Positions 19,007 through 48,363 of a DNA stretch of 64,000 nucleotides are shown one piece after another. Both the position numbers and the translations under genes were made by a program. A model generated the notes under the pieces. That model was not told the DNA's origin, searched no databases, and saw nothing but the letters and a program-made list of their open reading frames with translations. The stretch covers positions 10,919-74,918 of the forward strand of contig HF993083.1 in the NCBI GenBank assembly GCA_000433475.1. The letters are read 5' to 3'. Positions within the stretch are counted from its first letter, which is position 1, and each line of letters begins with the position of its first letter. The stretch comes from Mycoplasma sp. CAG:956 (GTDB lineage Bacteria; Bacillota_I; Bacilli_A; RF39; UBA660).

Positions 19007-19573
19007 ATGAACGTTGAAGAAATGAATAAACATTTTAATAATAATTCTTATACTAATTATTTGGTTAGAGATAAGGATATTATAAGAACTCCATATACTA
19101 GTGAAATAAATTTTAAAAATACTTCTCCTATATGTAATTTAGAAGAAATAGATTGCAGCACTTCTGGGGTACTAGAAGATATAGAAGATACTATTTTTAA
19201 ATTAAATGATATAGATTATGATGCCCTAAGTTTTAGCTTTTGTGGTGGTTTAGTTGTTAAAAATAACAAACATAAAACAGAAAATATTGATGATTTATTC
19301 TTATATCGTTTAATTATTTATCCTGTAAAGAGTGTTAATGGTGAGTATAGAAGAATAGGCGGCAATAGGAATATCTATCAAAGTGTTTCTGGGAGCATGG
19401 AAAAAATCATTCATTTTGAGGATTTACTAGTTATTTTAAATGGTTTACACATATTACCGTTATATGTTGATAGTGATTATTTTAAAGTATTAACAGAAGG
19501 TTTTCTAGGTTGTGGTAAGCCAATATTATTTACTTTAAAAAAAGAAAAAGGGAGAGTACTTAAAAAGAATTAA
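19007..19573 (+). CDS. Hypothetical protein
   Basis: ORF with ATG 19007 (track start TTG 18995); no motif recognised. Confidence 0.4.
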   Translation: MNVEEMNKHFNNNSYTNYLVRDKDIIRTPYTSEINFKNTSPICNLEEIDCSTSGVLEDIEDTIFKLNDIDYDALSFSFCGGLVVKNNKHKTENIDDLFLYRLIIYPVKSVNGEYRRIGGNRNIYQSVSGSMEKIIHFEDLLVILNGLHILPLYVDSDYFKVLTEGFLGCGKPILFTLKKEKGRVLKKN

Positions 19574-19680
19574 GTGCTTTTTCCTTTTTTATTTGTTATA
19601 CAAATTTAATATAAATTTCTTTAAAACATTGTTTCAAGGAAAAGTTATGATACAATAACAATATAAATTGGTGGTGTTTT

Positions 19681-20361
19681 ATGATAAATATATTAATAGT
19701 AGAAGATGATATTAATCTACTTAATATTATAAAGAAGAATTTAGAAAGAGAAGGGTATGTGGTTTATACCGCTTTAGATGGGGTATCTGGGTTAGAAGTA
19801 TTTGAAAATAATCATATTGATTTAATTATTTTAGATTTAATGTTACCTAAATTAGATGGATATGAATTTACGAAGAAAATTAGAAATGAAAAAGAGAATT
19901 TACCTATTATAATGACTACTGCTAAAAGTTTAATGGAAGATAAAAGAATTGCTTTTCAAACTGGTGTTGATGATTATATGACTAAACCCTTAGAAATGGA
20001 AGAACTATTATTAAGGGTAAAAGCCTTACTTAGACGTAGTAAGATTTTAGCTGAAAGAAAAATAGTTATTGGTAAAGTAGTAGTCGATTGTGATGCGATG
20101 ACGGTTACCAGAGATGGTGATGTAACGGAACTAACACAAAAGGAATTTGCCTTGTTATATAAATTACTATCTAATCCTAATAAAATATTTACAAGAAATC
20201 AGTTAATGGATGAGATATGGGGATATGAGTCTAATAGTGATGATAGGACAATCGATGCTCATATTAATAGATTAAGAAGAAAATTTGAAAATTATCCAGA
20301 ATTTGAAATTAAATCGGTTAGGGGGCTAGGGTATAAGGTGGTTAAAAATGAAAAAAATTAA
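19681..20361 (+). CDS. OmpR/PhoB-family response regulator
   Basis: Receiver IDLIILDLMLPKLDG, winged-helix TIDAHINRLRRKF...VRGLGYK. Confidence 0.9.
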   Translation: MINILIVEDDINLLNIIKKNLEREGYVVYTALDGVSGLEVFENNHIDLIILDLMLPKLDGYEFTKKIRNEKENLPIIMTTAKSLMEDKRIAFQTGVDDYMTKPLEMEELLLRVKALLRRSKILAERKIVIGKVVVDCDAMTVTRDGDVTELTQKEFALLYKLLSNPNKIFTRNQLMDEIWGYESNSDDRTIDAHINRLRRKFENYPEFEIKSVRGLGYKVVKNEKN

Positions 20362-21403
20362 TGATGATGAAATAAAGGCTAATCAAAAATTAACTGTTTA
20401 TTTTACAGCTTTAGCATTTTGTACCTTTGCCGCGATTATAATAGCTTTAAGTTTTTTGATATTCTTAGGTAATCAAATACTAGGTTGGGACTATATGATT
20501 GATTTGCACCAGTCCCAGTTTTGGGTTTTAGTCTTTGTGGCTATCATTTTAATTGGGGTAATTTCTTCAATTTTAATTGGTCGTCCTATTTTAAAAGGGA
20601 TTAAAGAGATATCTAACTCCACGAAAAAGATTAGTGAAGGAGACTTTTCGGTACGTATTAAAGAAAATAATACTAAGTTTTTAGGGCGTCTTTCTCATGA
20701 TTTTAATCAAATGGCTAAAGAATTAGAGGGTGTTAAAATATTAAGAAATGATTTTATTAATAATTTTTCCCATGAGTTTAAAACACCAATAAGTTCGATT
20801 AAAAATTATGCAGAAGAGTTAAAAAATAATGATTTATCTAAAGAAGAACAGGATAAATATTTGGATATAATTATTAAAGAAGCAACCAGACTTTCTAACC
20901 TTTCTAATAGTATTTTATATTTATCAAAAGTAGAAAAACAAGAAATTTTAACAGACAAAACGAAGTACGATGTGGGAGAACAAATAAGACAAGCTATTCT
21001 TTTAGAAATGAAAAAAATAGAAGAAAAGAATCTTGAATTAGACTTAGATATATTAGATTATAAATTGTTGTTGAATGAAGATAGTATTGAACAAGTATGG
21101 ATTAATATTTTAGATAATGCAATTAAATTTAGTGAAGCTGGTAAGACTTTAAAAATTACTAGTAAACTTGTTAATGGTTTTTATGAAGTAAGAATTAAAG
21201 ATGAAGGAATTGGTATTGAAGAAGATGATTTACCATTTGTTTGTGAAAAATTTTATAAAGCCGATAAGTCACATTCTGAAGAAGGTAATGGTTTGGGTCT
21301 TTCTTTAGTAAAAAGAATTCTTGAATTGCATAAAGGTAGTATTGAAATAAAAAGTAAAGTAGGTAAAGGAACTTTAGTTATCGTAAAATTACCAATTAAA
21401 TGA
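20348..21403 (+). CDS. Sensor histidine kinase (2 TM, HAMP, HisKA, HATPase_c)
   Basis: H-box FSHEFKTPISSI, G-box GNGLGLSLVKRI; overlaps the regulator gene by 14 nt. Confidence 0.9.
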   Translation: MKKINDDEIKANQKLTVYFTALAFCTFAAIIIALSFLIFLGNQILGWDYMIDLHQSQFWVLVFVAIILIGVISSILIGRPILKGIKEISNSTKKISEGDFSVRIKENNTKFLGRLSHDFNQMAKELEGVKILRNDFINNFSHEFKTPISSIKNYAEELKNNDLSKEEQDKYLDIIIKEATRLSNLSNSILYLSKVEKQEILTDKTKYDVGEQIRQAILLEMKKIEEKNLELDLDILDYKLLLNEDSIEQVWINILDNAIKFSEAGKTLKITSKLVNGFYEVRIKDEGIGIEEDDLPFVCEKFYKADKSHSEEGNGLGLSLVKRILELHKGSIEIKSKVGKGTLVIVKLPIK

Positions 21404-21466
21404 TTTCATATTCAGTTCATTTTTTAATTGTATAATAAATTTGTTTTGCATAGGAAGTGATTACTT

Positions 21467-23023
21467 ATGAAAAAAAATTATGACTATTATAATAATCCAA
21501 AGATAAATAGTTTTAAAGATTTAATGAATTTAAGTATTAAAAAACCAGATGATATAGCTTTTAAATATTTGGATAATAGTAAAGTTTTAATTAGTAAGAC
21601 TTATAAAGATTTTTATGAAGATGTAAGACTTACTAGTAATTATATAGCTAATCTTTATAATAATAAACATATTGCTTTAATTGGAAAGAATTCATATAAC
21701 TTTTTAGTGTTATTTATGAGTATTGTTATCAGTGGTAATTGTGTAGTTATTATTGATAAAGATTTAGATGCTAATGATATTAAAAAGATGCTTAAGAATA
21801 CTAGTACTAATACTTGCTTTTATTCTAAAGAATATTGTGATAGTTTAAATGGGATTGTTAGTAAGATGTATCCGATTGAAGAGATAGAAAATTATAAATT
21901 AGAAAAAAATTTTATTAGATTTACTAATCCTAAAGATGCTAGTGTTATTTTCTTTACTTCGGGAACAACGGGATTTAACAAGGCTGTTTGTTTAAGTGAA
22001 GAAAATATTTGCTTTGATATTTGGTCTTTAGCTAGTCTATTTAAACCGAATGGCGGTGTATTTGCCGTTTTACCATTTCATCATTCATTCGGACTTATTA
22101 CCGGTATTTTAAAACCATTCTATTATCACGTTCCAATATTTATTAATAGTAGTCTTAAGTCTTTACAAAAAGAAATGAAGCTAGCAGAGGCTAATACAAT
22201 GTTTGTAGTGCCAGTATTTATTGAAACTTTTTATAAGACTATTTGGTCAACAGCTAGAAAGACTAAGCAAGATAAAAAGTTGAAATTAGCGATTAAGTTA
22301 TCTAACAGTCTTTTAAAAATTGGTATCGACTTAAGAAAGAAATTATTCAAATCAGTTACTGACCAGTTTGGGGGAAATTTGGAATATTTTATATGTGGTG
22401 GGGCTTATTTAGATAGCAAATATATTAAATGGTTCCGTAGTATTGGGATTGAAATTTTAAACGGTTATGGTATTACTGAGTGTAGTCCAGTTGTAGCAGT
22501 TAATCGTAATTTGTATGGTAAAGATGGTTCTGTTGGTCTAATTGGTCGTGATATTGATGTTAAAATAATCGACAATGAAATATGTGTTAAAGGTAAAAAT
22601 GTCATGCTGGGGTATTTTAATGATACGAAGGCAACTAAAGAAGTCTTGCAGGACGGTTGGTTTAAAACTGGTGACCTAGGTTATATTGATAAAGATGGAT
22701 TTTTGTTTATAACTGGTAGGAAGAAAAACTTAATAATTTTATCTAATGGTGAAAATATTTTACCAGAAATGATAGAAGAAAAACTAATGAAAGATAAAGG
22801 TATTATGGAAGTAGTGGTTAGTACTTTAAATAATCAGTTAGTAGCCTATATTTATCCAAGTGAGGATTACTTAGGTAATACGACTTATTTTAATAATTTA
22901 ATTTATAAATATAATAAGATAGTTCCTAAAAATCATCAAATAAGTAAGTGTATTTTAAGAACTACGGAATTTAAGAAAAATAATAATCATAAAATTTTAA
23001 GAAATAAAATAATGGAGGAATAA
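21467..23023 (+). CDS. Acyl-AMP ligase / long-chain fatty-acid ligase (AMP-binding superfamily)
   Basis: FFTSGTTGFNKAV, GYGITECS, TGDLGYIDKDGFLFITGRKKNLIILSNGENI. Confidence 0.8.
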   Translation: MKKNYDYYNNPKINSFKDLMNLSIKKPDDIAFKYLDNSKVLISKTYKDFYEDVRLTSNYIANLYNNKHIALIGKNSYNFLVLFMSIVISGNCVVIIDKDLDANDIKKMLKNTSTNTCFYSKEYCDSLNGIVSKMYPIEEIENYKLEKNFIRFTNPKDASVIFFTSGTTGFNKAVCLSEENICFDIWSLASLFKPNGGVFAVLPFHHSFGLITGILKPFYYHVPIFINSSLKSLQKEMKLAEANTMFVVPVFIETFYKTIWSTARKTKQDKKLKLAIKLSNSLLKIGIDLRKKLFKSVTDQFGGNLEYFICGGAYLDSKYIKWFRSIGIEILNGYGITECSPVVAVNRNLYGKDGSVGLIGRDIDVKIIDNEICVKGKNVMLGYFNDTKATKEVLQDGWFKTGDLGYIDKDGFLFITGRKKNLIILSNGENILPEMIEEKLMKDKGIMEVVVSTLNNQLVAYIYPSEDYLGNTTYFNNLIYKYNKIVPKNHQISKCILRTTEFKKNNNHKILRNKIMEE

Positions 23024-23026
23024 AAA

Positions 23027-23263
23027 ATGGAAAATAAAAAAATAATGGTTGGAGAAGTAATTAAATTAATTAGTGAGGTTTGTGAAATACCGGAAGAAAA
23101 GATTAGTGGTAAATCTAATTTAACAACGGATTTAGAGTTAGAATCTTTAGATATTGTTACTTTGATTAGTGAATGTGAAGAAAGATATCATATAACCGTT
23201 CCTGATAAAGATATTAAGACTTTCCAAACTGTTAATGATATTGTGGAATACTTAAATAAGTAA
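23027..23263 (+). CDS. Acyl carrier protein-like carrier
   Basis: 78 aa, LELESLDIVTLI with Ser at the phosphopantetheine position; starts 3 nt after the ligase stop. Confidence 0.7.
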   Translation: MENKKIMVGEVIKLISEVCEIPEEKISGKSNLTTDLELESLDIVTLISECEERYHITVPDKDIKTFQTVNDIVEYLNK

Positions 23264-23301
23264 TTGTTAATTTATAAATTAATAATTAAGATTTTAGAAA
23301 A

Positions 23302-23745
23302 ATGAATAAATTATATATTGAAGAAAATGTTAGTAGTAATGATATTATAAAAGAAATTGCTATTGATAATAATTTAAGTAACTATGTAGTTTTAAAAAAT
23401 AAAAATGGTAAACCTTATTTTAAAGGTAATGATATCTATTTTAATATAAGTAATAAAGATAATATAACAGTTGCAGTTACAAGTTTTAACCCAGTTGGTA
23501 TTGATATTGAAAAATTAACTTTTAAGCTCTCGATAGTTAAACATTTTTTTAGTAAAAATGAACAAGAAATAATTAAGAAAAGTTTAAATAAAGAGTTAGA
23601 CTTTACAACTATATGGGTAAAAAAAGAAGCTTATTTAAAATACTTGGGTTTAGATTTAACAAGTATTAGAAAGATAGATACAACTAAAATAAGTGGTTTT
23701 ACAATAAAAAAATATAAAGAATATATAATAGGAATTAAGGAGTAA
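23302..23745 (+). CDS. 4'-phosphopantetheinyl transferase superfamily protein (short)
   Basis: NKNGKPYF, GIDIEKL and WVKKEAYLKYLG motifs. Confidence 0.6.
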   Translation: MNKLYIEENVSSNDIIKEIAIDNNLSNYVVLKNKNGKPYFKGNDIYFNISNKDNITVAVTSFNPVGIDIEKLTFKLSIVKHFFSKNEQEIIKKSLNKELDFTTIWVKKEAYLKYLGLDLTSIRKIDTTKISGFTIKKYKEYIIGIKE

Positions 23746-23747
23746 GG

Positions 23748-25502
23748 ATGAATTTATTATATTGTGGGGATAGTAATATTAAAGACGGTCTATTTTTGTC
23801 AATAAAATCAATTTTAAAAGTAGAAAAAGAAGCTTTAAATATTTATGTTTTATCAATGGATTATTTAAATTATAAAAAGATAGATAGTGATTTTATTGAT
23901 TATTTAGATACTTTAGTAAAAGAAGTTAATAAGAAGAGTTTTGTTAAACTAATTGATATGACTAGTATTTATCAAGAACATGAATGTAAGGCAAATAAAG
24001 ATACTTTATTTACACCTTATTGTATGTTAAGACTATATAGTGATTTAGTTGATTTACCTAGTAAAATATTATATTTAGATACGGATGTTTTAGTCTATCG
24101 TAGTTTTAAAGATTTTTATAATATTAATAATACTAATTATGAATTAGTAGGGGTACTAGATTACTATGGTAGTCATGTTTATAAGAAAAATCCTTTTAAG
24201 AAAGATTATTTAAATTCTGGAGTATTACTGTTTAATTTGGATTTACTAAAAAAGGAAGATATTTTAAAGAAAGCTCGTAAAATGTGTGCGACTAAAAAGA
24301 TGCTATTGCCTGATCAAAGTGCTTTAAACATTTTGTGTAAACATAAACTTATTGTTGATAGAAAATATAACGAACAAAAAGCTATGCAAAGTGATACGGT
24401 GCTAAGACATTTTACAACGACATTTAAGTTTTTTCCAAGGATTAAAACACAAAAAGTTAAGCCTTGGCAAATTAATAGAATGCATGATGTATTAAACTGT
24501 CATGAATTTGATTGGTTACTTGATGAATATAAGGAGTGGTTACAAATGAATAATAAAATTATACCAATATTTTTTACAATCGATGATGCTTTTGCACCTT
24601 TTGCAAGTGTAGCAATAAAGTCATTACTTGATAATGCTAGTCAAAATTATTTTTATCATATTCATATTGTTAATAATGGTTTAAGTGAAGAAAATATTAC
24701 TAAGATTTTAGAATTAGAAACTAGTTATAGTAAGATAATGTTTAATAATATGGATGAAAGACTTAAAGCAATAACGGATAAAAAAGGAACAAGATTAAGA
24801 GAAGACTACTTTAGTTTGGCTATTTTCTTTAGAATTTTTATCCCTGATTGTTTTAAGGAATATGATAAAGCTTTATATATTGATGCTGATACTATAATAT
24901 TAGATGATATTAGTAAGTTATATAATACGGATTTAGAAGGTAACTATATTGGGGGATGTGTTGATACTTCTTGTTTTGGTATTAAAGATATAACTAATTA
25001 TTTTACCAACGGTGTTGGAGTTGATTACCGTGAGTATATAAATTCTGGTGTTATTCTTTTTGATATGAAAACCTTAAGAGATAAAGGTTTTGCCGATAAA
25101 TTCTTATATTTATTTAATAAATATAACTTTGGCAATGTAGATCCTGACCAATCTTATATAAATGCGATGCTAAAAGGTAAAATTAAGTATTTAGATGGTA
25201 AGTGGGATACTATGCCTACTGAGGGTGGTAAAAGATGTGATAATCCGGGTATTGTTCACTTCAATTTATTTAAGAAACCTTGGCATTATGATAATGTTTT
25301 ATATGAAGAGGAATTTTGGAGTTATGCTAAGAAGACAGCTTATTATGAAAAAATAAAGGAAATTAAAGAAAACTATACTGATGAAGATAAACAAAAAGAC
25401 AATAAGAGCTTAGAAGCAATGTTAAAAAGATGTCGAGAAATAGTTAAAGATGAGGTTACTTTTAAAACAGTCTTTGATAGTGGTAAGGAAGATAGATTGT
25501 AA
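23748..25502 (+). CDS. Glycosyltransferase family 8, two tandem GT8 domains
   Basis: Two copies of the GT8 pattern: LYLDTDVLV...NSGVLLFNL...PDQSALN and IDADTIIL...NSGVILFDM...PDQSYIN. Confidence 0.8.
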   Translation: MNLLYCGDSNIKDGLFLSIKSILKVEKEALNIYVLSMDYLNYKKIDSDFIDYLDTLVKEVNKKSFVKLIDMTSIYQEHECKANKDTLFTPYCMLRLYSDLVDLPSKILYLDTDVLVYRSFKDFYNINNTNYELVGVLDYYGSHVYKKNPFKKDYLNSGVLLFNLDLLKKEDILKKARKMCATKKMLLPDQSALNILCKHKLIVDRKYNEQKAMQSDTVLRHFTTTFKFFPRIKTQKVKPWQINRMHDVLNCHEFDWLLDEYKEWLQMNNKIIPIFFTIDDAFAPFASVAIKSLLDNASQNYFYHIHIVNNGLSEENITKILELETSYSKIMFNNMDERLKAITDKKGTRLREDYFSLAIFFRIFIPDCFKEYDKALYIDADTIILDDISKLYNTDLEGNYIGGCVDTSCFGIKDITNYFTNGVGVDYREYINSGVILFDMKTLRDKGFADKFLYLFNKYNFGNVDPDQSYINAMLKGKIKYLDGKWDTMPTEGGKRCDNPGIVHFNLFKKPWHYDNVLYEEEFWSYAKKTAYYEKIKEIKENYTDEDKQKDNKSLEAMLKRCREIVKDEVTFKTVFDSGKEDRL

Positions 25503-26365
25503 TGATTATCGGTGGTTCGAAAAAAGATGTAATTAAAAATATTGAACAAAATGTCTTAGATAATGAACTTAATAAAAAAGTAGAAGTTAATGATGCGATA
25601 TTAAGTGATGAGGAAATAACTAAGTTATTAGATACTTTTTATAAAAATAAAGGTAAGAAAATAAGATATGGTATTAAACATGCAATTGCTAATATGACAG
25701 TAAGTAAGTATATGAAAATGCTTGATAAAGATATAGTTATTAATGGGGCTGAAAAGTTAAAAAATGTGGATTTAAGTAAGGGAGCAATTATTACATCTAA
25801 TCATTTTAATCCTTTAGATACTTTTATTATTAGAAAATTAGTAGAAAAAGTCTTAAAGAAAGATTTGTATATAGTTATTCAAGATACAAATTTAGCCATG
25901 CCTGGTAGTTTAGGTTTTTTAATGAATTATTTAAATGTTATACCAGTTAGTAAAAGTCCAACTTATTTAGCGGGAACATTTAAAGAAAATTTAAGAAAAA
26001 TTCTAAATGCTGGTAATATTGTTTTGATTTATCCAGAAGAAGAAATGTGGTTTAATTATCGTAAGATAAGACCATTAAAAAGAGGAGCTTATCAGTATGC
26101 TGCTATTCTTAATGTACCCGTAATATCTTGTTTTACAAAGATAATAGATACAGATATAGTTGATAACGAAGAATTTAATAAGACTACTTATGAGTTAAAT
26201 GTTTTGGGAGTTTTATATCCTGATAAAGATGTTAGTCCTAGAGTAAATAGTATTAATATGTTAAATGAAGATTATGAGTGGAAGAAACAGGCATATGAAA
26301 ATGTTTATCATAAAAAGTTAGAATATACTTTTTCTGCTGATGATATTGCTGGTTATAGATGGTAG
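25502..26365 (+). CDS. Lysophospholipid/1-acyl-glycerol-3-phosphate acyltransferase family (LPLAT) protein
   Basis: HX4D motif NHFNPLD and IYPEEE block; ATG overlaps the GT8 stop by 1 nt. Confidence 0.65.
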   Translation: MIIGGSKKDVIKNIEQNVLDNELNKKVEVNDAILSDEEITKLLDTFYKNKGKKIRYGIKHAIANMTVSKYMKMLDKDIVINGAEKLKNVDLSKGAIITSNHFNPLDTFIIRKLVEKVLKKDLYIVIQDTNLAMPGSLGFLMNYLNVIPVSKSPTYLAGTFKENLRKILNAGNIVLIYPEEEMWFNYRKIRPLKRGAYQYAAILNVPVISCFTKIIDTDIVDNEEFNKTTYELNVLGVLYPDKDVSPRVNSINMLNEDYEWKKQAYENVYHKKLEYTFSADDIAGYRW

Positions 26366-26387
26366 AGTACTTAGTACTCTTTTTTTT
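26364..26387 (+). terminator. Rho-independent terminator of the lipid/glycosyl cluster
   Basis: agagtac tta gtactct hairpin followed by T7. Confidence 0.7.
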
Positions 26388-26432
26388 GTATGAATATATA
26401 TTTATTGGGAATAATATATTCTTTAGATAATA

Positions 26433-26725
26433 TTTTCATAGAGTTAAAAACTCTATGAATACGTATTTTCGGATATTATTTTTACCTTATACCTAAATAA
26501 TATCATATCTTTAAGCCTTTTTAAAGAATATATTTAAAGATAAATTATCTTTTTATAGTCAAATTTCTAGTCAAACAATATCTTTTAAAACCTAGGTGAA
26601 TACTGGCTTTGCTAAAAATTATTCTAGTCAGAAAACAAATTTCATTCTAGTCGAAATTATAGTCAAATAGACTTCAAACTCAGTATTCACCTAATATTTT
26701 CATAGAGTTTTTAACTCTATGAAAA
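26433..26725. repeat. Inverted-repeat-bounded upstream module, copy 1
   Basis: 26433..26459 and 26699..26725 are exact reverse complements (27/27). Nested 13-bp IR at 26593..26605 / 26681..26693. RGTCAR hexamer pairs start at 26557/26569 and 26649/26661. Confidence 0.85.
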
Positions 26726-26809
26726 CAGAATTAATGGATATGTATATTATTTTTAATTTTGGTAGGCTATAAGTGTTGCATATTATAGCTAGAAATGGTT
26801 TATATTAAT

Positions 26810-28570
26810 ATGAAAAAATTTAATAAAGATAAGTATTTAAAGAAATTAAAATTTAATAAGTATAAGAGATACTTATATATAGGAATACCTTGTATATTAG
26901 TATTATTAATAGGAATATACTTTGCTTATTCAAAGTTTAGTGTTTTTAAAGAGGAAGAAGTAGTAAGAACTACGGTAGAAAGTTTTATCTCTGATGATGC
27001 TGTTATTGGAGCTTATATAGATGGAGAATACTCTAAAACTATTCCTGGTAAGAATGATGGTTATATAGTAGATAAAATAGTCTGTGATAATGATGCAACT
27101 GCTTCTTGGAATAATGATTCTTGGGGAATAGTATTAACTAATCTAACTAAGAGAACTAAATGTAATGTGTATTTTAAGAAAGGCATAAAAATTGGTAATT
27201 TGACTGCTTTTGTTGATGAGTTAGGTAAATGTCCAACTATCAATAGTGATGGTACAGTTAATGTAACTAGTGCTGAAGCAACGGATGGTTATGTTTGTAG
27301 TGCAAAAGACGCATATGGAACAAGTTATTATTATCGTGGAAATGTTACAAACAACTATGTAAAGTTTGGTAAATGGTCTGATGATTTACCGACATCGTTT
27401 GTTGATGGTGATGGTAATATATATGATTCTTATGATGATTGTACAAGTTTTGGTGGTGGTGATTGTACTGAGTTAGCTCTTGCTGGAAAAAGTATGTACT
27501 GGCGAATTGTTCGTATTAATGGCGATGGTACCGTTAGAGTAATCTATGATGGAACTTCAGCTCATACCAATGGTGAAAGTAGTATGGATAGACAAATTGG
27601 AACATCAGCATTCAATTCATATTGGAAGAAGGATAATGTTCAAGAAGCTACTGAATCATATGTTTATGATAATGCTGGTGTTGGCTATATGTATGGTAAT
27701 CGTGATGCTATGGTAGAAACCACATCATCTTTTATATCAACTAGTTTTCAAAATAATTATACATATTATATTGCTAAAGAGTATACATATGATGCCACAA
27801 CCGATAGATTTACTTTAAAAGATCCGATTGCCGTATTAGGTAGTGCTATGACCTCAGACTATGTAGGCTATTATACTTTTGGAAATTCAAATGTTAGTTA
27901 TTCTAATAGCCGATTGATGAAAATATTTGGAGTAACAGCTGGTCGTATAGATGCCGATGTAGAATATGGTTATATCACGTATGGGACTTCAAGTAAAGAA
28001 GTAGCTCAGACTAATATAAATGACTCAACTATAAAAGCTTACTTAGATAATTGGTATAAAACTAATATTTTCGGTACGAAAAATGAACAATATTTAGCGG
28101 ATAATATTTTTTGCAATGATCGCAGTTTTGCATCTAGTAATTCAGGAACTGGAGCTGGAGTAAGTAAAACATATTATAATTGGTATAATTGGCATACATC
28201 TAAGTCTAATTTAAAATGCCCACAAAAAAATGATGCCTTTACGGTAAGCGATACTACCAATGGTAATGGAGCACTAACATATCCAGTCGGACTTTTAAGT
28301 ACGGATGAAATAGTACTAGCCGGTGGATTGGATAAAGAAAATAGTGATTATTACTTATACTTTGGGAACTGGTGGTGGACTTCCTCACCATACGAATTTG
28401 CCAGCAGCAGTGCTGACATGCGTTATGTGGCTCAGAGTGGTCTTGCGAGTGCCAAAGGCTTTGGTGCTGCTGATTCCAGCCGTGGTGTTCGTCCAGTTAT
28501 CAATCTGAAGGCTGAAGTGCTGGCACAAGGCTCCGGGACAGCTTCGGATCCTTATCGCATTTCTTCGTAG
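26810..28570 (+). CDS. Large membrane-anchored/secreted protein, family paralog A (intact)
   Basis: MKKFNKDKYLKK... basic N-terminus plus TM. Family blocks GKCPTINSDGTVNVT, YGTSYYYRGNVTNNYVKFG, YWRIVRINGDGTVRVIYDGTSAH, NIFCNDR, CPQKNDAFTVSD, YPVGLLSTDE, GVRPVINLK. Confidence 0.8.
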   Translation: MKKFNKDKYLKKLKFNKYKRYLYIGIPCILVLLIGIYFAYSKFSVFKEEEVVRTTVESFISDDAVIGAYIDGEYSKTIPGKNDGYIVDKIVCDNDATASWNNDSWGIVLTNLTKRTKCNVYFKKGIKIGNLTAFVDELGKCPTINSDGTVNVTSAEATDGYVCSAKDAYGTSYYYRGNVTNNYVKFGKWSDDLPTSFVDGDGNIYDSYDDCTSFGGGDCTELALAGKSMYWRIVRINGDGTVRVIYDGTSAHTNGESSMDRQIGTSAFNSYWKKDNVQEATESYVYDNAGVGYMYGNRDAMVETTSSFISTSFQNNYTYYIAKEYTYDATTDRFTLKDPIAVLGSAMTSDYVGYYTFGNSNVSYSNSRLMKIFGVTAGRIDADVEYGYITYGTSSKEVAQTNINDSTIKAYLDNWYKTNIFGTKNEQYLADNIFCNDRSFASSNSGTGAGVSKTYYNWYNWHTSKSNLKCPQKNDAFTVSDTTNGNGALTYPVGLLSTDEIVLAGGLDKENSDYYLYFGNWWWTSSPYEFASSSADMRYVAQSGLASAKGFGAADSSRGVRPVINLKAEVLAQGSGTASDPYRISS

Positions 28571-44252: not shown

Positions 44253-45326
44253 ATGAAATTTATAAATACAATTTTTAAATATATAGATACTTATAAAAGA
44301 AATATTTTAGTAATAATGCTTATTTTAATAACGGTAAGTGGAATACTTGGAATATCTTATTATATGTTTTTTAATAATAAGATAGAAAAATATCAAAAAA
44401 ATAATTATATGTTTAAAGTTTATCATGCTGGTTATATAGATGGTGATTATAGTACATATAACAAACTAAAAGAAAGTAAGTACGTAGTTGATATATTTAG
44501 CACAAAAGAATACACAGCATCCGTTATTTTTAAAAATGGATGGACCGTTGATTTATTTGGAACTATTCCAAATAATATGAATATGGTTGATGGTCGTACC
44601 TTTAATATAGATAGTGATGATGAAATAATATGCCCAGATAATTTTAATGATGATGAAACTGAGTTTTTAAAAAATAAAACAAAGAATATTTCTCAATATT
44701 TAAATAAAAGTCTTATTTTAACTGATTATGATGATAATGAAACGAAAGTAAAATTAGTGGGAATTTTTGCTTCTAAAGATGGTGTTTATGAACCAACATA
44801 TTGTTTTGCATCACATAAAACATTACAAAAAATAAATGAAAAAATGCCCCAATATTATAATTCTGAAAGTATTTATATTCAAATTGATGATAATAGTAAC
44901 TTAGAAAAACTAAAAGAACAATTTCCAACAATTAACTTTTCTAAAATACAAGAAGCAAATAACGATATCAGAAATTTAGTCTGTGGTATATGTTTATTTA
45001 TTTATGTTGTCAGTTTATTTATTATAATAGAAATAATGCGAAAAATTGCAGTAAATGTCAAAGCTCAAGGTAGTATTAAAAATAAAATAATATCTGTTTT
45101 AAAATTAGAATTAAAACCATTAATAATTGGCATAATGATTGGTCTTGTTATAACTTTTATTATAAATTATTTGGTTATTCCTAAATTAATTCCAAGTATT
45201 TATTTATTTTATAATAATTATGCTGAGGTTAAAATTATATATGTTCTTTTAAATATTTTGGTAACTGGTCTTATTGTTGTAATGAGTAATCTTAGGAGTG
45301 TCATGAAGATAGAGGTTAAAAAATGA
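44253..45326 (+). CDS. FtsX/MacB-like permease (divergent), no cognate ATPase adjacent
   Basis: N-terminal TM, ~200-aa external domain, then 3 TM with RKIAVNVKAQGSIKNKIISVLKLE resembling the FtsX loop. Confidence 0.5.
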   Translation: MKFINTIFKYIDTYKRNILVIMLILITVSGILGISYYMFFNNKIEKYQKNNYMFKVYHAGYIDGDYSTYNKLKESKYVVDIFSTKEYTASVIFKNGWTVDLFGTIPNNMNMVDGRTFNIDSDDEIICPDNFNDDETEFLKNKTKNISQYLNKSLILTDYDDNETKVKLVGIFASKDGVYEPTYCFASHKTLQKINEKMPQYYNSESIYIQIDDNSNLEKLKEQFPTINFSKIQEANNDIRNLVCGICLFIYVVSLFIIIEIMRKIAVNVKAQGSIKNKIISVLKLELKPLIIGIMIGLVITFIINYLVIPKLIPSIYLFYNNYAEVKIIYVLLNILVTGLIVVMSNLRSVMKIEVKK

Positions 45327-46060
45327 AAAAAGGAAAAATATTTCAAGAATTATTTAAAATTTCTCTTGTATTATTAGGAGTTTATCTTTTAGAAGTTATC
45401 TGTTTTAATTTATATGTCAATATAAAGATATTTATTATTTTAGTATTTCTTGTTTGTATTAATATTTACTGTAAAAATTATTTTTTAGTAATTGAAGATA
45501 AAGACTATTCGTATGTTGAAAAAATGATTTTATTTTATTCTGTAATTTATTTTTTAATTTTATTACTTGTTACTAGTTTTTTTCGAGGTCAAAGAATTGT
45601 AACTTCAAATTTTCATCAAGTTAATTTTATTCCAATTATAAATACTATTAAAGATATAAAACTAATATTATTTTCTAAAAAATTGTGGATGTTAAGTACT
45701 ATTTTGGGTAATATTGTGATGTTTATTCCTTTTAGTTATCTCTTACCAAGACTTAAGAAAAATATGAATTTTAGGAAAACTATAATGTTAATATTAGGAT
45801 TATCTTTTCTAATTGAATCTTTTCAATATATGTTTGGAACTGGTGTTTTTGATATAGATGATATTATTTTAAATGGAGTTGGAGCAATTATTACTTATCC
45901 TTTACTAAATAATAGTCGTTTTTCTAAAATTGTTGATAAATTTATTCTGCTTAAAACTTTTAAATTTTCAATTAAAGACTATTTAGAAATTAGTATTATC
46001 ATTCTTTTAGGATTATTTTTTCTAATCTTTTTAATATCTTCATATTGGAAACTAATTTAA
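45323..46060 (+). CDS. VanZ-like family membrane protein
   Basis: FIPFSYLLP ... ESFQYMFGTGVFDIDDIILNGVGAIITYP; ATGA overlap with upstream gene. Confidence 0.7.
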   Translation: MKKGKIFQELFKISLVLLGVYLLEVICFNLYVNIKIFIILVFLVCINIYCKNYFLVIEDKDYSYVEKMILFYSVIYFLILLLVTSFFRGQRIVTSNFHQVNFIPIINTIKDIKLILFSKKLWMLSTILGNIVMFIPFSYLLPRLKKNMNFRKTIMLILGLSFLIESFQYMFGTGVFDIDDIILNGVGAIITYPLLNNSRFSKIVDKFILLKTFKFSIKDYLEISIIILLGLFFLIFLISSYWKLI

Positions 46061-47664: not shown

Positions 47665-48363
47665 ATGAAAAGATTTAAAAAACCTAGAGATATTAATTTA
47701 TTATGGATATATACAATATTAATTTTAATAGAAGTTATATGGTCTATTAATAGTATTGGCAAGTTAATAAGTCCTAAATTAATTAATATAGTTAAGAATA
47801 ATATAGTATATTATGATAATTTATTAGTAGAAGAATATGTTGATACTAAAGAATTAAGAAGTAATTTAGTTGATAATTTAATTACTTTAGATAAGAATAA
47901 AAATGAAGAAATAATAAATATTAATATTGATACAGCTAAGTCTTATGAATTAATGGCAAATATTGTAAAAGAGTTAAAAGGTAAGTCTAATAATTATGGT
48001 GATGTTGATTCTTATGCTAAAAATAAACGAGGAAGTATGGTACTTAGGTATCCAATAGGACTTGCTAGTTCTAATATATTACTTAATAATTTAGGGTATC
48101 GTATTCCTTTAAAGTTAATACTTAATAGTAATGTTTTAACGGGTATTAAAACTAAAGTTACTAATTATGGTTTAAATAATGCGTTAATTGAAGTTTATCT
48201 AAGGGTAAGTTTTGTTTCTAATGTTATTTATTTTAATATGGATGAGGCACTTAAAAGTGATTATGAAATTCTTTTAGCAAGTCGGATGGTAATGGGGAGA
48301 GTTCCAGATATGTTTAATGGTTATTTAGAAAAAAATATTGAAAATAATAATATTAAAAGTTAA
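47665..48363 (+). CDS. yunB: Sporulation protein YunB-like
   Basis: YPIGLASSNILLNNLGYRIPLKL...GLNNALIEVYLRV...MGRVPDMFNG matches my recollection of the B. subtilis YunB C-terminal half (IPLGQATNNALLANLGPKVPVKL...GINNAYVEVYVHL...QGEVPQFYNG). Confidence 0.75.
   Translation: MKRFKKPRDINLLWIYTILILIEVIWSINSIGKLISPKLINIVKNNIVYYDNLLVEEYVDTKELRSNLVDNLITLDKNKNEEIININIDTAKSYELMANIVKELKGKSNNYGDVDSYAKNKRGSMVLRYPIGLASSNILLNNLGYRIPLKLILNSNVLTGIKTKVTNYGLNNALIEVYLRVSFVSNVIYFNMDEALKSDYEILLASRMVMGRVPDMFNGYLEKNIENNNIKS

Follow-up and report, generated by a model that had tools for sequence, protein, structure and literature searches.

Gene content and organisation of the cluster

We have analysed a stretch of 64,000 nucleotides from Mycoplasma sp. 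CAG:956, a member of the RF39 group of Bacilli (contig HF993083.1, positions 10,919 to 74,918, forward strand), which is referred to here as the window and has a G+C content of approximately 26%. Our subject is a run of seven genes on its plus strand. They encode a two-component system, consisting of a response regulator (RR) and a histidine kinase (HK), followed by a fatty-acid adenylating ligase, an acyl carrier protein (ACP), a 4'-phosphopantetheinyl transferase (PPTase), a fusion of two GT8 glycosyltransferases, and a soluble LPLAT-fold acyltransferase, here called ATB (Table 1). The list of open reading frames (ORFs) places all seven exactly where a preliminary description of this DNA had put them. 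None of them requires stop-codon reassignment, and all seven proteins have Pfam domains above the gathering score.

Table 1 Features of the cluster and its boundaries. Positions are those of the window.
Feature	Position	Strand	Basis
Terminator of upstream gene, 5' boundary of unit	19550..19583	+	14-pair stem then T run
Candidate promoter, constitutive, ahead of the RR and HK genes; extended -10 TGATACAAT	19648..19656	+	Inference from sequence reading
OmpR/PhoB-family response regulator (RR), 226 aa	19681..20361	+	Pfam Response_reg + Trans_reg_C
Predicted intramembrane-sensing histidine kinase (HK), 351 aa	20348..21403	+	Pfam HAMP + HisKA + HATPase_c, hydropathy
Direct repeat TTCATATTCAGTTCAT = TTCAT-N6-TTCAT, 11-bp register, candidate RR box replacing -35	21405..21420	+	Conservation
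Perfect -10 hexamer TATAAT, exactly 10 nt 3' of box	21431..21436	+	Sequence, conserved spacing
ANL-superfamily fatty-acid adenylating ligase, 518 aa, predicted acyl-ACP synthetase	21467..23023	+	Pfam AMP-binding
Stand-alone acyl carrier protein (ACP), 78 aa	23027..23263	+	Pfam PP-binding
Predicted compact Sfp-type 4'-phosphopantetheinyl transferase (PPTase), 147 aa	23302..23745	+	Pfam ACPS, fold
Fusion of two retaining GT8 glycosyltransferases, 584 aa, halves ~1-262 / 263-584	23748..25502	+	Pfam Glyco_transf_8
ATB, soluble LPLAT-fold acyltransferase, 287 aa	25502..26365	+	Pfam PF01553, AlphaFold2 + Foldseek
Intrinsic terminator closing operon	26364..26388	+	7-bp stem 26364-26380, then T run

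The RR and HK genes overlap by 14 nt. The ligase gene is followed after 3 nt by that of the carrier, with a GGAGG inside the 3' end of the ligase gene, and the PPTase gene follows after a further 38 nt. Only 2 nt separate the PPTase from the GT8 fusion, which has AAGGAG ahead of its ATG, and the GT8 and acyltransferase genes overlap in TAATG. These junctions amount to translational coupling. The spacer between kinase and ligase is 63 nt long and contains no terminator; it holds a direct-repeat box, 10 nt, and TATAAT.

The same seven-gene order is found in six other public contigs (loci L001, L009-L011, L090 and L091), with protein identity falling to around 61-67%; L001 retains it at 61%. Such a gene set is far from a chance arrangement. 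No cluster protein reaches any NCBIfam equivalog cut-off, and therefore none of them is an orthologue of a named enzyme. The ligase, carrier, PPTase, GT8 fusion and ATB have no transmembrane segments and are cytoplasmic.

Predicted activities of the encoded proteins

The ligase scores 144 bits against the Pfam AMP-binding model and has the motifs TSGTTGFNK (at residue 164), GYGITE (333), TGDLG (401) and GRKKN (417), all of which are conserved in its homologues. Its nearest solved structures are FadD13 and an insect long-chain fatty-acyl-CoA synthetase, that is, CoA ligases. It is short, at 518 residues; the trait that defines the fatty acyl-AMP ligases (FAALs) is an N-terminal insertion that blocks the use of CoA. 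Against the Aas equivalog models NF005291 and NF006386 the ligase scores 127.5 bits (cut-off 1349) and 108.8 bits (cut-off 1221), and ATB scores 29.7 bits against the cut-off of 1221. The two proteins match different parts of these models, far below cut-off, and lie outside Aas itself, being separate polypeptides here.

The carrier scores 49.8 bits against PP-binding (PF00550, cut-off 20.8). Its attachment residue is Ser40, within LESLD, and is conserved in at least 95% of 74 homologues. It falls below the cut-offs for the housekeeping protein AcpP (55.4 against 70.45 bits for TIGR00517, and 59.3 against 71 for PRK00982), and is acidic, with a pI of 4.5; the ligase, PPTase and ATB are basic. 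It could be the only ACP of the cell instead of a private one.

The PPTase scores 49.0 bits against the ACPS profile (cut-off 25), and both its motifs (GKP, FNIS, GIDIE and WxxKEA) and the residues G66, D68, E87, W105, K108 and E109 are conserved in homologues. The AlphaFold2 model has a mean pLDDT of 93.9. Its top Foldseek match is Sfp (4mrt), with a TM-score of 0.72 on the query and 25% identity, and matches to AcpS are far weaker. At 147 residues it spans only around half of Sfp (TM-score 0.49 on the target), and so lacks the two full pseudo-symmetric halves, of around 220-240 residues, by which Sfp is recognised. The PPTase is a compact enzyme of the Sfp type, unusually small (147 residues against around 225), with a confident model and every catalytic motif in place, and has been conserved in 48 loci.

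The GT8 protein matches Glyco_transf_8 (PF01501) in two stretches, with 222.9 bits against a cut-off of 24.3. Its DxD motifs, at residues 111-113 and 379-381, are retained by at least 95% of the homologues compared (93 and 96, respectively), and the KPW motif is kept in both halves; the earlier assignment of two retaining GT8 domains is thus borne out. The relatives in the PDB are LgtC and the GT8 domain of WbbM, both far stronger than GlyE (5gvv, E 8e-7). In sister lineages the two halves are separate genes.

ATB matches PF01553 with 52.4 bits (cut-off 23). The HX4D motif is HFNPLD at residue 101, in which the histidine is invariant, and the pI is 8.75. At the position of motif III, PEGTR, it has YPEEEMWFNYR, and against the PlsC model TIGR00530 it scores 33.4 bits, short of the cut-off of 102.95. 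No significant match in the PDB was found for ATB by single sequence or by profile, the lone profile match being a nematode fatty-acid-binding repeat with an E-value of 0.25. The AlphaFold2 model (pLDDT 91.8) has Foldseek matches only to PlsC (5kym), PatA (5f2z and 5oce) and glycerol-phosphate acyltransferase (GPAT, 1iuq), with TM-scores of around 0.45-0.55 and a probability of 1.00. The family is narrow, with 164 clusters at E<=1e-30 among 1.84 billion representatives, and part of these clusters are C-terminal domains of proteins of around 600 residues. ATB is not a generic PlsC. One homologous locus (L059) encodes a 550-residue protein that contains ATB and is probably a double acyltransferase.

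A widespread module of two glycosyltransferases and two acyltransferases

An ATB alignment was used to scan one genome per species, which gave at least 578 confirmed matches, of which the best 80 were annotated with seed proteins. The comparisons cover homologues of the fused GT8 with their contigs, 88 ATB-anchored loci, and a second sample of 80 ligase-anchored metagenome loci.

Distant relatives keep just the two GT8 enzymes (GT8n and GT8c) and an acyltransferase, usually with a further protein of 250-280 residues, which we call ATA. This is a second, divergent LPLAT-like enzyme, which is membrane-anchored; its N-terminal segment is hydrophobic, and it carries the motifs NHTQPxGD and YPEAHVWPY. 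ATA, GT8n, GT8c and ATB occur together in nearly all of the 88 ATB-anchored loci. The carriers of the module include Lachnospiraceae, Oscillospiraceae, Ruminococcus and eleven cultured species of Lactobacillaceae, and also Bacteroidales (Cryptobacteroides), Saccharibacteria and many metagenome-assembled genomes (MAGs) labelled 'uncultured Bacilli/Tenericutes'. In the window, orthologues of GT8n, GT8c and ATB are adjacent, and those of the Clostridia and Lactobacillaceae are 43-50% identical to them. The window differs from these loci in that its GT8 enzymes are fused, ATA is absent, and a ligase, an ACP, a PPTase and a two-component system have been added. Its five biosynthetic genes are a derived form of this widespread module. 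The preliminary description had treated these five genes as a set that should be conserved together. They are indeed co-conserved, in more than 50 loci, but the set of five is not the ancestral one, since the normal locus has six parts and includes ATA.

The recurrent neighbours of the module in other genomes are lipid-related. They include giant BcrAD_BadFG+DUF2229 proteins of the plasmalogen-synthase type (9 loci), HlyIII/PAQR proteins (6 loci), short-chain dehydrogenases (6 loci) and MsbA-like ABC exporters (5 loci, plus horA on beer-spoilage plasmids). On the latter plasmids, such as pPECL-8 of Pediococcus claussenii, the module surrounds an ABC-transporter gene at the horA position. A comparative study counts these two glycosyltransferases and two acyltransferases among the plasmid genes found specifically in beer-spoiling L. 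brevis (PMC6533708). In our literature search no published GT8 plus LPLAT module was found, nor a ligase-ACP pair in Saccharibacteria or RF39, and the paper on UgtA/UgtB of C. difficile has no mention of GT8 or acyltransferases.

In the tree of ATB sequences the window and the six contigs that share its gene order form a monophyletic clade (100/100), here called the window clade. It is nested within RF39-like Bacilli, and is sister (98/92) to loci that have split GT8 genes and a convergently oriented ATA. The GT8 fusion, the loss of ATA from the locus and the gain of the two-component system are therefore derived. Fused GT8 enzymes also occur in some Clostridia and Bacteroidales, and the fusion in the window is independent of these. 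Fusions of a GT8 enzyme with an acyltransferase also occur in the module in other genomes.

Association of the ligase and carrier with lineages reported or known to lack fatty-acid synthesis

The ligase, ACP and PPTase genes precede GT8n-GT8c-ATB in the window clade and in all 22 loci from RF39-like Bacilli, where the contig allows. In Saccharibacteria, eight of nine module loci have the ligase and ACP without the PPTase. Neither gene accompanies the module in any of the approximately 50 loci from Clostridia, Lactobacillaceae and Bacteroidales. Saccharibacteria are not known to synthesise fatty acids. RF39 is reported to have lost fatty-acid biosynthesis entirely (PMC6784871). Because the added genes occur, in the loci sampled, only in these two groups, both reported or known to lack fatty-acid synthesis, we argue that the ligase feeds acyl-ACP to the acyltransferase. 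In one further locus (L139, on a contig of 1.69 Mb) the order is ligase-ACP-ATA-GT8n-GT8c-ATB, all on one strand, with an ATA of 430 residues.

The maximum-likelihood tree of ATB contains a split (support 100/99) that falls exactly along the presence or absence of ligase and ACP, and the ligase-bearing side mixes Saccharibacteria with Bacilli. Such a pattern implies that the unit as a whole has moved between these lineages, and that ATB has evolved together with the donor of its acyl chain.

A similar picture is obtained starting from the ligase. Among the 80 ligase-anchored loci, ligases of at least 50% identity are almost always followed by an ACP (and a PPTase) and joined to the module, and a carrier gene is the direct neighbour of the ligase in most of the set. 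Ligases of 37-47% identity still adjoin a carrier gene, which fits a family that loads a stand-alone carrier. Some of these distant pairs (L117, L121, L128, L143 and L152) lie beside ORFs of approximately 1,300-2,450 residues with weak ligase similarity; we take these to be megasynthases, and the arrangement suggests lipoinitiation of products of non-ribosomal peptide synthetases (NRPS) or polyketide synthases (PKS). Some pairs of this set are then followed by an Sfp-type PPTase of 200-260 residues.

In three rumen contigs (L101, L103 and L104), ATB is divergently oriented from ligase-ACP-PPTase, and no GT8 or ATA gene is present within the contig. The existence of such loci makes ligase-ACP-PPTase-ATB the minimal functional unit. 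This unit appears to be a split, carrier-dependent analogue of Aas, as had been proposed for the window: the ligase and ATB match separate parts of Aas, their genes are coupled, and the combination persists without GT8. The neighbours in L104 are unrelated (Ham1, an aldo-keto reductase and a Cna_B surface protein).

The two-component system and its candidate promoter box

The RR gene is conserved upstream of the cluster in all seven loci of the window clade. According to its hydropathy, the HK crosses the membrane twice (within residues 14-48 and again within 53-85), with around 10-20 residues of loop in between, and then continues into HAMP, HisKA and HATPase domains. Such a layout is that expected of an intramembrane-sensing kinase.

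There is no usable -35 sequence before the ligase, and the promoter is therefore probably activator-dependent. The direct repeat in its place has an 11-bp register and ends 10 nt before the -10 sequence, which is the classic layout for activation by regulators of the PhoB/OmpR type. The TTCAT-N6-TTCAT box is kept in L001, L009, L010 (with one C variant), L011 and L090 despite diverged flanks. In L001 and L011 the spacer between kinase and ligase is approximately 450-490 nt long and has otherwise diverged, yet the box, its spacing and the -10 sequence are all kept. A relaxed pattern of the box occurs 24 times in the 4.7 Mb of strands searched; no further copies, and no other members of a regulon, were found in the window.

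The 10-nt spacing between box and -10 sequence is shared by the clade loci and by a MAG of the Clostridia (L039), in which GTTCATAAAGCGTTCAT, 10 nt and TATGAT stand upstream of an operon with the order RR-HK-ATA-GT8n-GT8c-ATB. Its RR and HK are 51% and 42% identical to those of the window. The recurrence of the box before a related operon of sensor plus module points to control by the sensor. Regulation by the adjacent two-component system, which had been suggested earlier, thus gains support from a conserved sequence that resembles a binding site.

A further group of rumen contigs (L129, L135, L136, L137 and L153) carries trios of ligase, RR and HK genes, in which the ligase is 42-44% identical to that of the window and has no carrier gene. 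The RR is around 50% and the HK around 38% identical to those of the window, and the kinases all have two transmembrane segments and a short loop. These trios have ordinary sigma-70 promoters and no TTCAT box, and the neighbours in L153 are uninformative. Together with L039 they indicate that sensors of this family have repeatedly become linked with fatty-acid activation or with the module. At the edge of another contig (L124, minus strand, 88-99) there are three TTCAT units in an 11-bp register, then TATAAT; the contig also bears a ligase-ACP pair approximately 8 kb away, and the repeated units may be another site of the same regulator family.

Comparison with characterised systems

One parallel is Aas of E. 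coli, which likewise combines an ANL ligase with an HX4D acyltransferase of the LPLAT type and passes the acyl chain via ACP. In the window, however, each activity resides in a soluble protein of its own, a dedicated carrier and PPTase accompany the two, and there is a link to two GT8 domains; no LplT partner is present among the annotated neighbours. The mycobacterial PimA/PimB'/PatA system is similar in that two retaining glycosyltransferases work with an LPLAT-fold acyltransferase, which acylates a sugar of the glycolipid. ATB finds one of its best structural matches in PatA, yet the identity is only 10-13% and the TM-score around 0.35-0.5. Moreover, the glycosyltransferases of that pathway belong to GT4 rather than GT8, and its acyltransferase works on an inositol lipid and draws the acyl group from acyl-CoA (structure 5f34 in the PDB shows PatA together with an analogue of acyl-CoA). 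In AasS of Vibrio harveyi and in lipoinitiation pairs of the DptE/DptF type, a ligase gene adjoins a small carrier gene, as it does here. The window differs from these in having no NRPS or PKS and in having an LPLAT enzyme as the downstream user.

Two sets of regulated systems are relevant to the sensor. In the HssRS and HitRS systems of Bacillota, which respond to haem or envelope stress, a direct repeat immediately 5' of the -10 sequence of the target operon is the site of action of an OmpR-type regulator, as proposed here, but their target is an ABC exporter, whereas that in the window is a lipid operon, and the kinase in the window is almost devoid of an extracellular domain. The HssR box of S. 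aureus, reportedly GTTCATATT-N2-GTTCATATT, would resemble TTCATATT-CA-GTTCAT of the window. In C. difficile, HexS, HexD and HexF are a glycosyltransferase, a deacetylase and a flippase. The two-component system HexRK induces HexSDF, and with it the synthesis of an additional glycolipid in the membrane, which changes how well the cells tolerate membrane-active antibiotics (PMC10128005). This provides a precedent for sensor-induced synthesis of a glycolipid, although the enzymes are unrelated and include no ligase, ACP or LPLAT.

Proposed pathway and alternative explanations

On the basis of these observations, we propose that the cluster encodes a sensor-induced pathway in which a scavenged fatty acid is loaded on the carrier, transferred by ATB, and built into a membrane glycolipid together with two alpha-hexoses. 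We put the probability of this reading at roughly 0.6. In the proposed scheme, the HK would report the state of the membrane or the presence of a membrane-active compound (probably), and the activated RR would bind the TTCAT-N6-TTCAT box and switch on the activator-dependent promoter ahead of the ligase. The mini-Sfp PPTase would turn the 78-residue carrier into its holo form, and the ligase would adenylate a free (scavenged) fatty acid and load it on the carrier to give acyl-ACP. ATB would then transfer the acyl chain from acyl-ACP to an acceptor hydroxyl, and the double GT8 would attach two alpha-linked hexoses from UDP-sugars. The product would be an acyl lipid with two alpha-linked sugars, located in the cytoplasmic membrane; alternatively, a glycolipid already present would become acylated on its sugar. 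The gene content, the motifs, the coupling, the co-conservation, the phylogenetic pattern and the conserved promoter box are observed, whereas we infer acyl-ACP as the donor, what the acceptor is, in which order the steps occur, the sugars, the inducing signal and the product. The preliminary description had allowed for either an envelope glycolipid or an acylated glycan; a lipid product is now favoured over the acylated glycan.

Several points weigh against this reading. No PEGTR-type motif is present in ATB, and its Foldseek matches fit PlsC-like as well as PatA-like use of the acceptor. ATA, which is present in almost all relatives, has no ORF or remnant in the 64-kb window, where tblastn with ATA finds only cross-hits to ATB, and is absent also from the other six loci of the window clade; the pathway may therefore be incomplete here, or depend for its completion on a gene located elsewhere. 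With a single copy in the window, the box is no more frequent than expected by chance (0.7 occurrences), so that its weight rests on conservation. The placing of this organism in a lineage lacking type II fatty-acid synthesis (FASII) is taken from its relatives. Finally, no detected product and no paper was found for any member of the module.

The main alternative is that the cluster serves housekeeping synthesis of bulk lipid, which we consider unlikely while giving it more credit than the others. The ligase-ACP-PPTase trio would then be the general, and perhaps the only, means of fatty-acid activation in the cell, ATB would acylate glycerol phosphate or lysophosphatidate, and the ordinary glycolipids of the membrane would be formed from diacylglycerol by the GT8 pair. 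This would suit the absence of FASII from RF39 and the restriction of ligase-ACP to lineages reported or known to lack FASII, but an activator-type promoter under a stress-type sensor would be unusual for essential bulk-lipid genes. The loci in which ATB stands beside ligase-ACP-PPTase without GT8 are in keeping with such a role; the ATB/GT8 module, however, is accessory and carried on plasmids in Lactobacillaceae, and is found beside normal lipid genes in Clostridia. The fold matches of ATB include the soluble plastid GPAT (1iuq), which favours this alternative. Against it, ATB has no phosphate-binding PEGTR-type motif, reaches 33 against 103 bits on the PlsC model, and belongs to a family that is tiny relative to PlsC. 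The locus also has no phosphatidate phosphatase.

It is distinctly less probable that the product is a secreted or surface-active glycolipid, such as a biosurfactant-like or signalling natural product, rather than a constituent of the membrane. The combination of sugar transferases with acyltransferases recalls the logic of mannosylerythritol-lipid and sophorolipid synthesis, and distant ligase-ACP relatives adjoin presumed megasynthases (the five loci listed above), but the locus itself contains no megasynthase, exporter or enzyme forming hydroxy fatty acids, and the recurrent neighbours of the module elsewhere are membrane-lipid genes. Modification of a protein or wall polymer, whether by O-glycosylation of the serine-rich-repeat (SRR) type or by acylation and glycosylation of a teichoic acid or polysaccharide, is very improbable and was rejected: GT8 enzymes do glycosylate streptococcal serine-rich adhesins, and GlyE is a weak match of the fusion, but LgtC and WbbM match much more strongly, the enzymes are all cytoplasmic without transmembrane segments, and no partner genes (SecA2/Y2, GtfA/B, SRR adhesin, flippase, polymerase or wall-polymer genes) occur among the annotated neighbours of the cluster or recur near its homologues. 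The earlier remark that no described pathway with this composition was known also holds: no characterised locus or paper was matched in the literature, and no genes for SRR proteins or lipoteichoic acid lie nearby.

Other features of the window

According to Pfam, there are no lipid genes among ten further ORFs of the window. Directly 3' of the operon terminator, near-perfect inverted repeats at 26435-26459 and 26698-26722 (TTCATAGAGTT..AACTCTATGAA) flank a segment of approximately 240 bp, which lies 5' of the gene for a membrane-anchored protein of 591 residues (26795-28570). Elsewhere in the window are genes for a VanZ-like protein (45323-46060) and a protein with a Spore_YunB domain (47665-48363); the latter is a sporulation domain, which is unexpected in a reduced RF39-like genome.

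Implications

A wider proposal is offered more tentatively. The ATA/GT8/GT8/ATB module may make an undescribed class of alpha-diglycosyl acyl lipid, sugar-acylated or glycerol-free, which would be widespread in gut Firmicutes and would help cells to withstand compounds that act on membranes, among them hop acids, bile and free fatty acids. For RF39-like Bacilli and Saccharibacteria, the trio of ligase, ACP and mini-Sfp would provide the route of fatty-acid activation that is otherwise missing. The trio would have been exchanged horizontally between these groups, and would be placed in the window clade under an intramembrane sensor of membrane or fatty-acid status.

RF39-like Bacilli and Saccharibacteria are common uncultured organisms of the gut, and how they activate scavenged fatty acids, and which lipids they make from them, bears on their resistance to cultivation. 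The locus described here is a concrete candidate answer, with a ligase, a carrier, a PPTase and an acyltransferase that form a self-contained set and are associated with two sugar transferases. The promoter box and sensor offer an experimental handle on the timing of lipid synthesis. The core enzymes are also found in the very abundant Lachnospiraceae of the human gut and on the hop-resistance plasmids of beer-spoilage lactobacilli, and since they are shared so widely, the product from any one system would annotate hundreds of species. That product might account for part of the tolerance to hop compounds or to bile.

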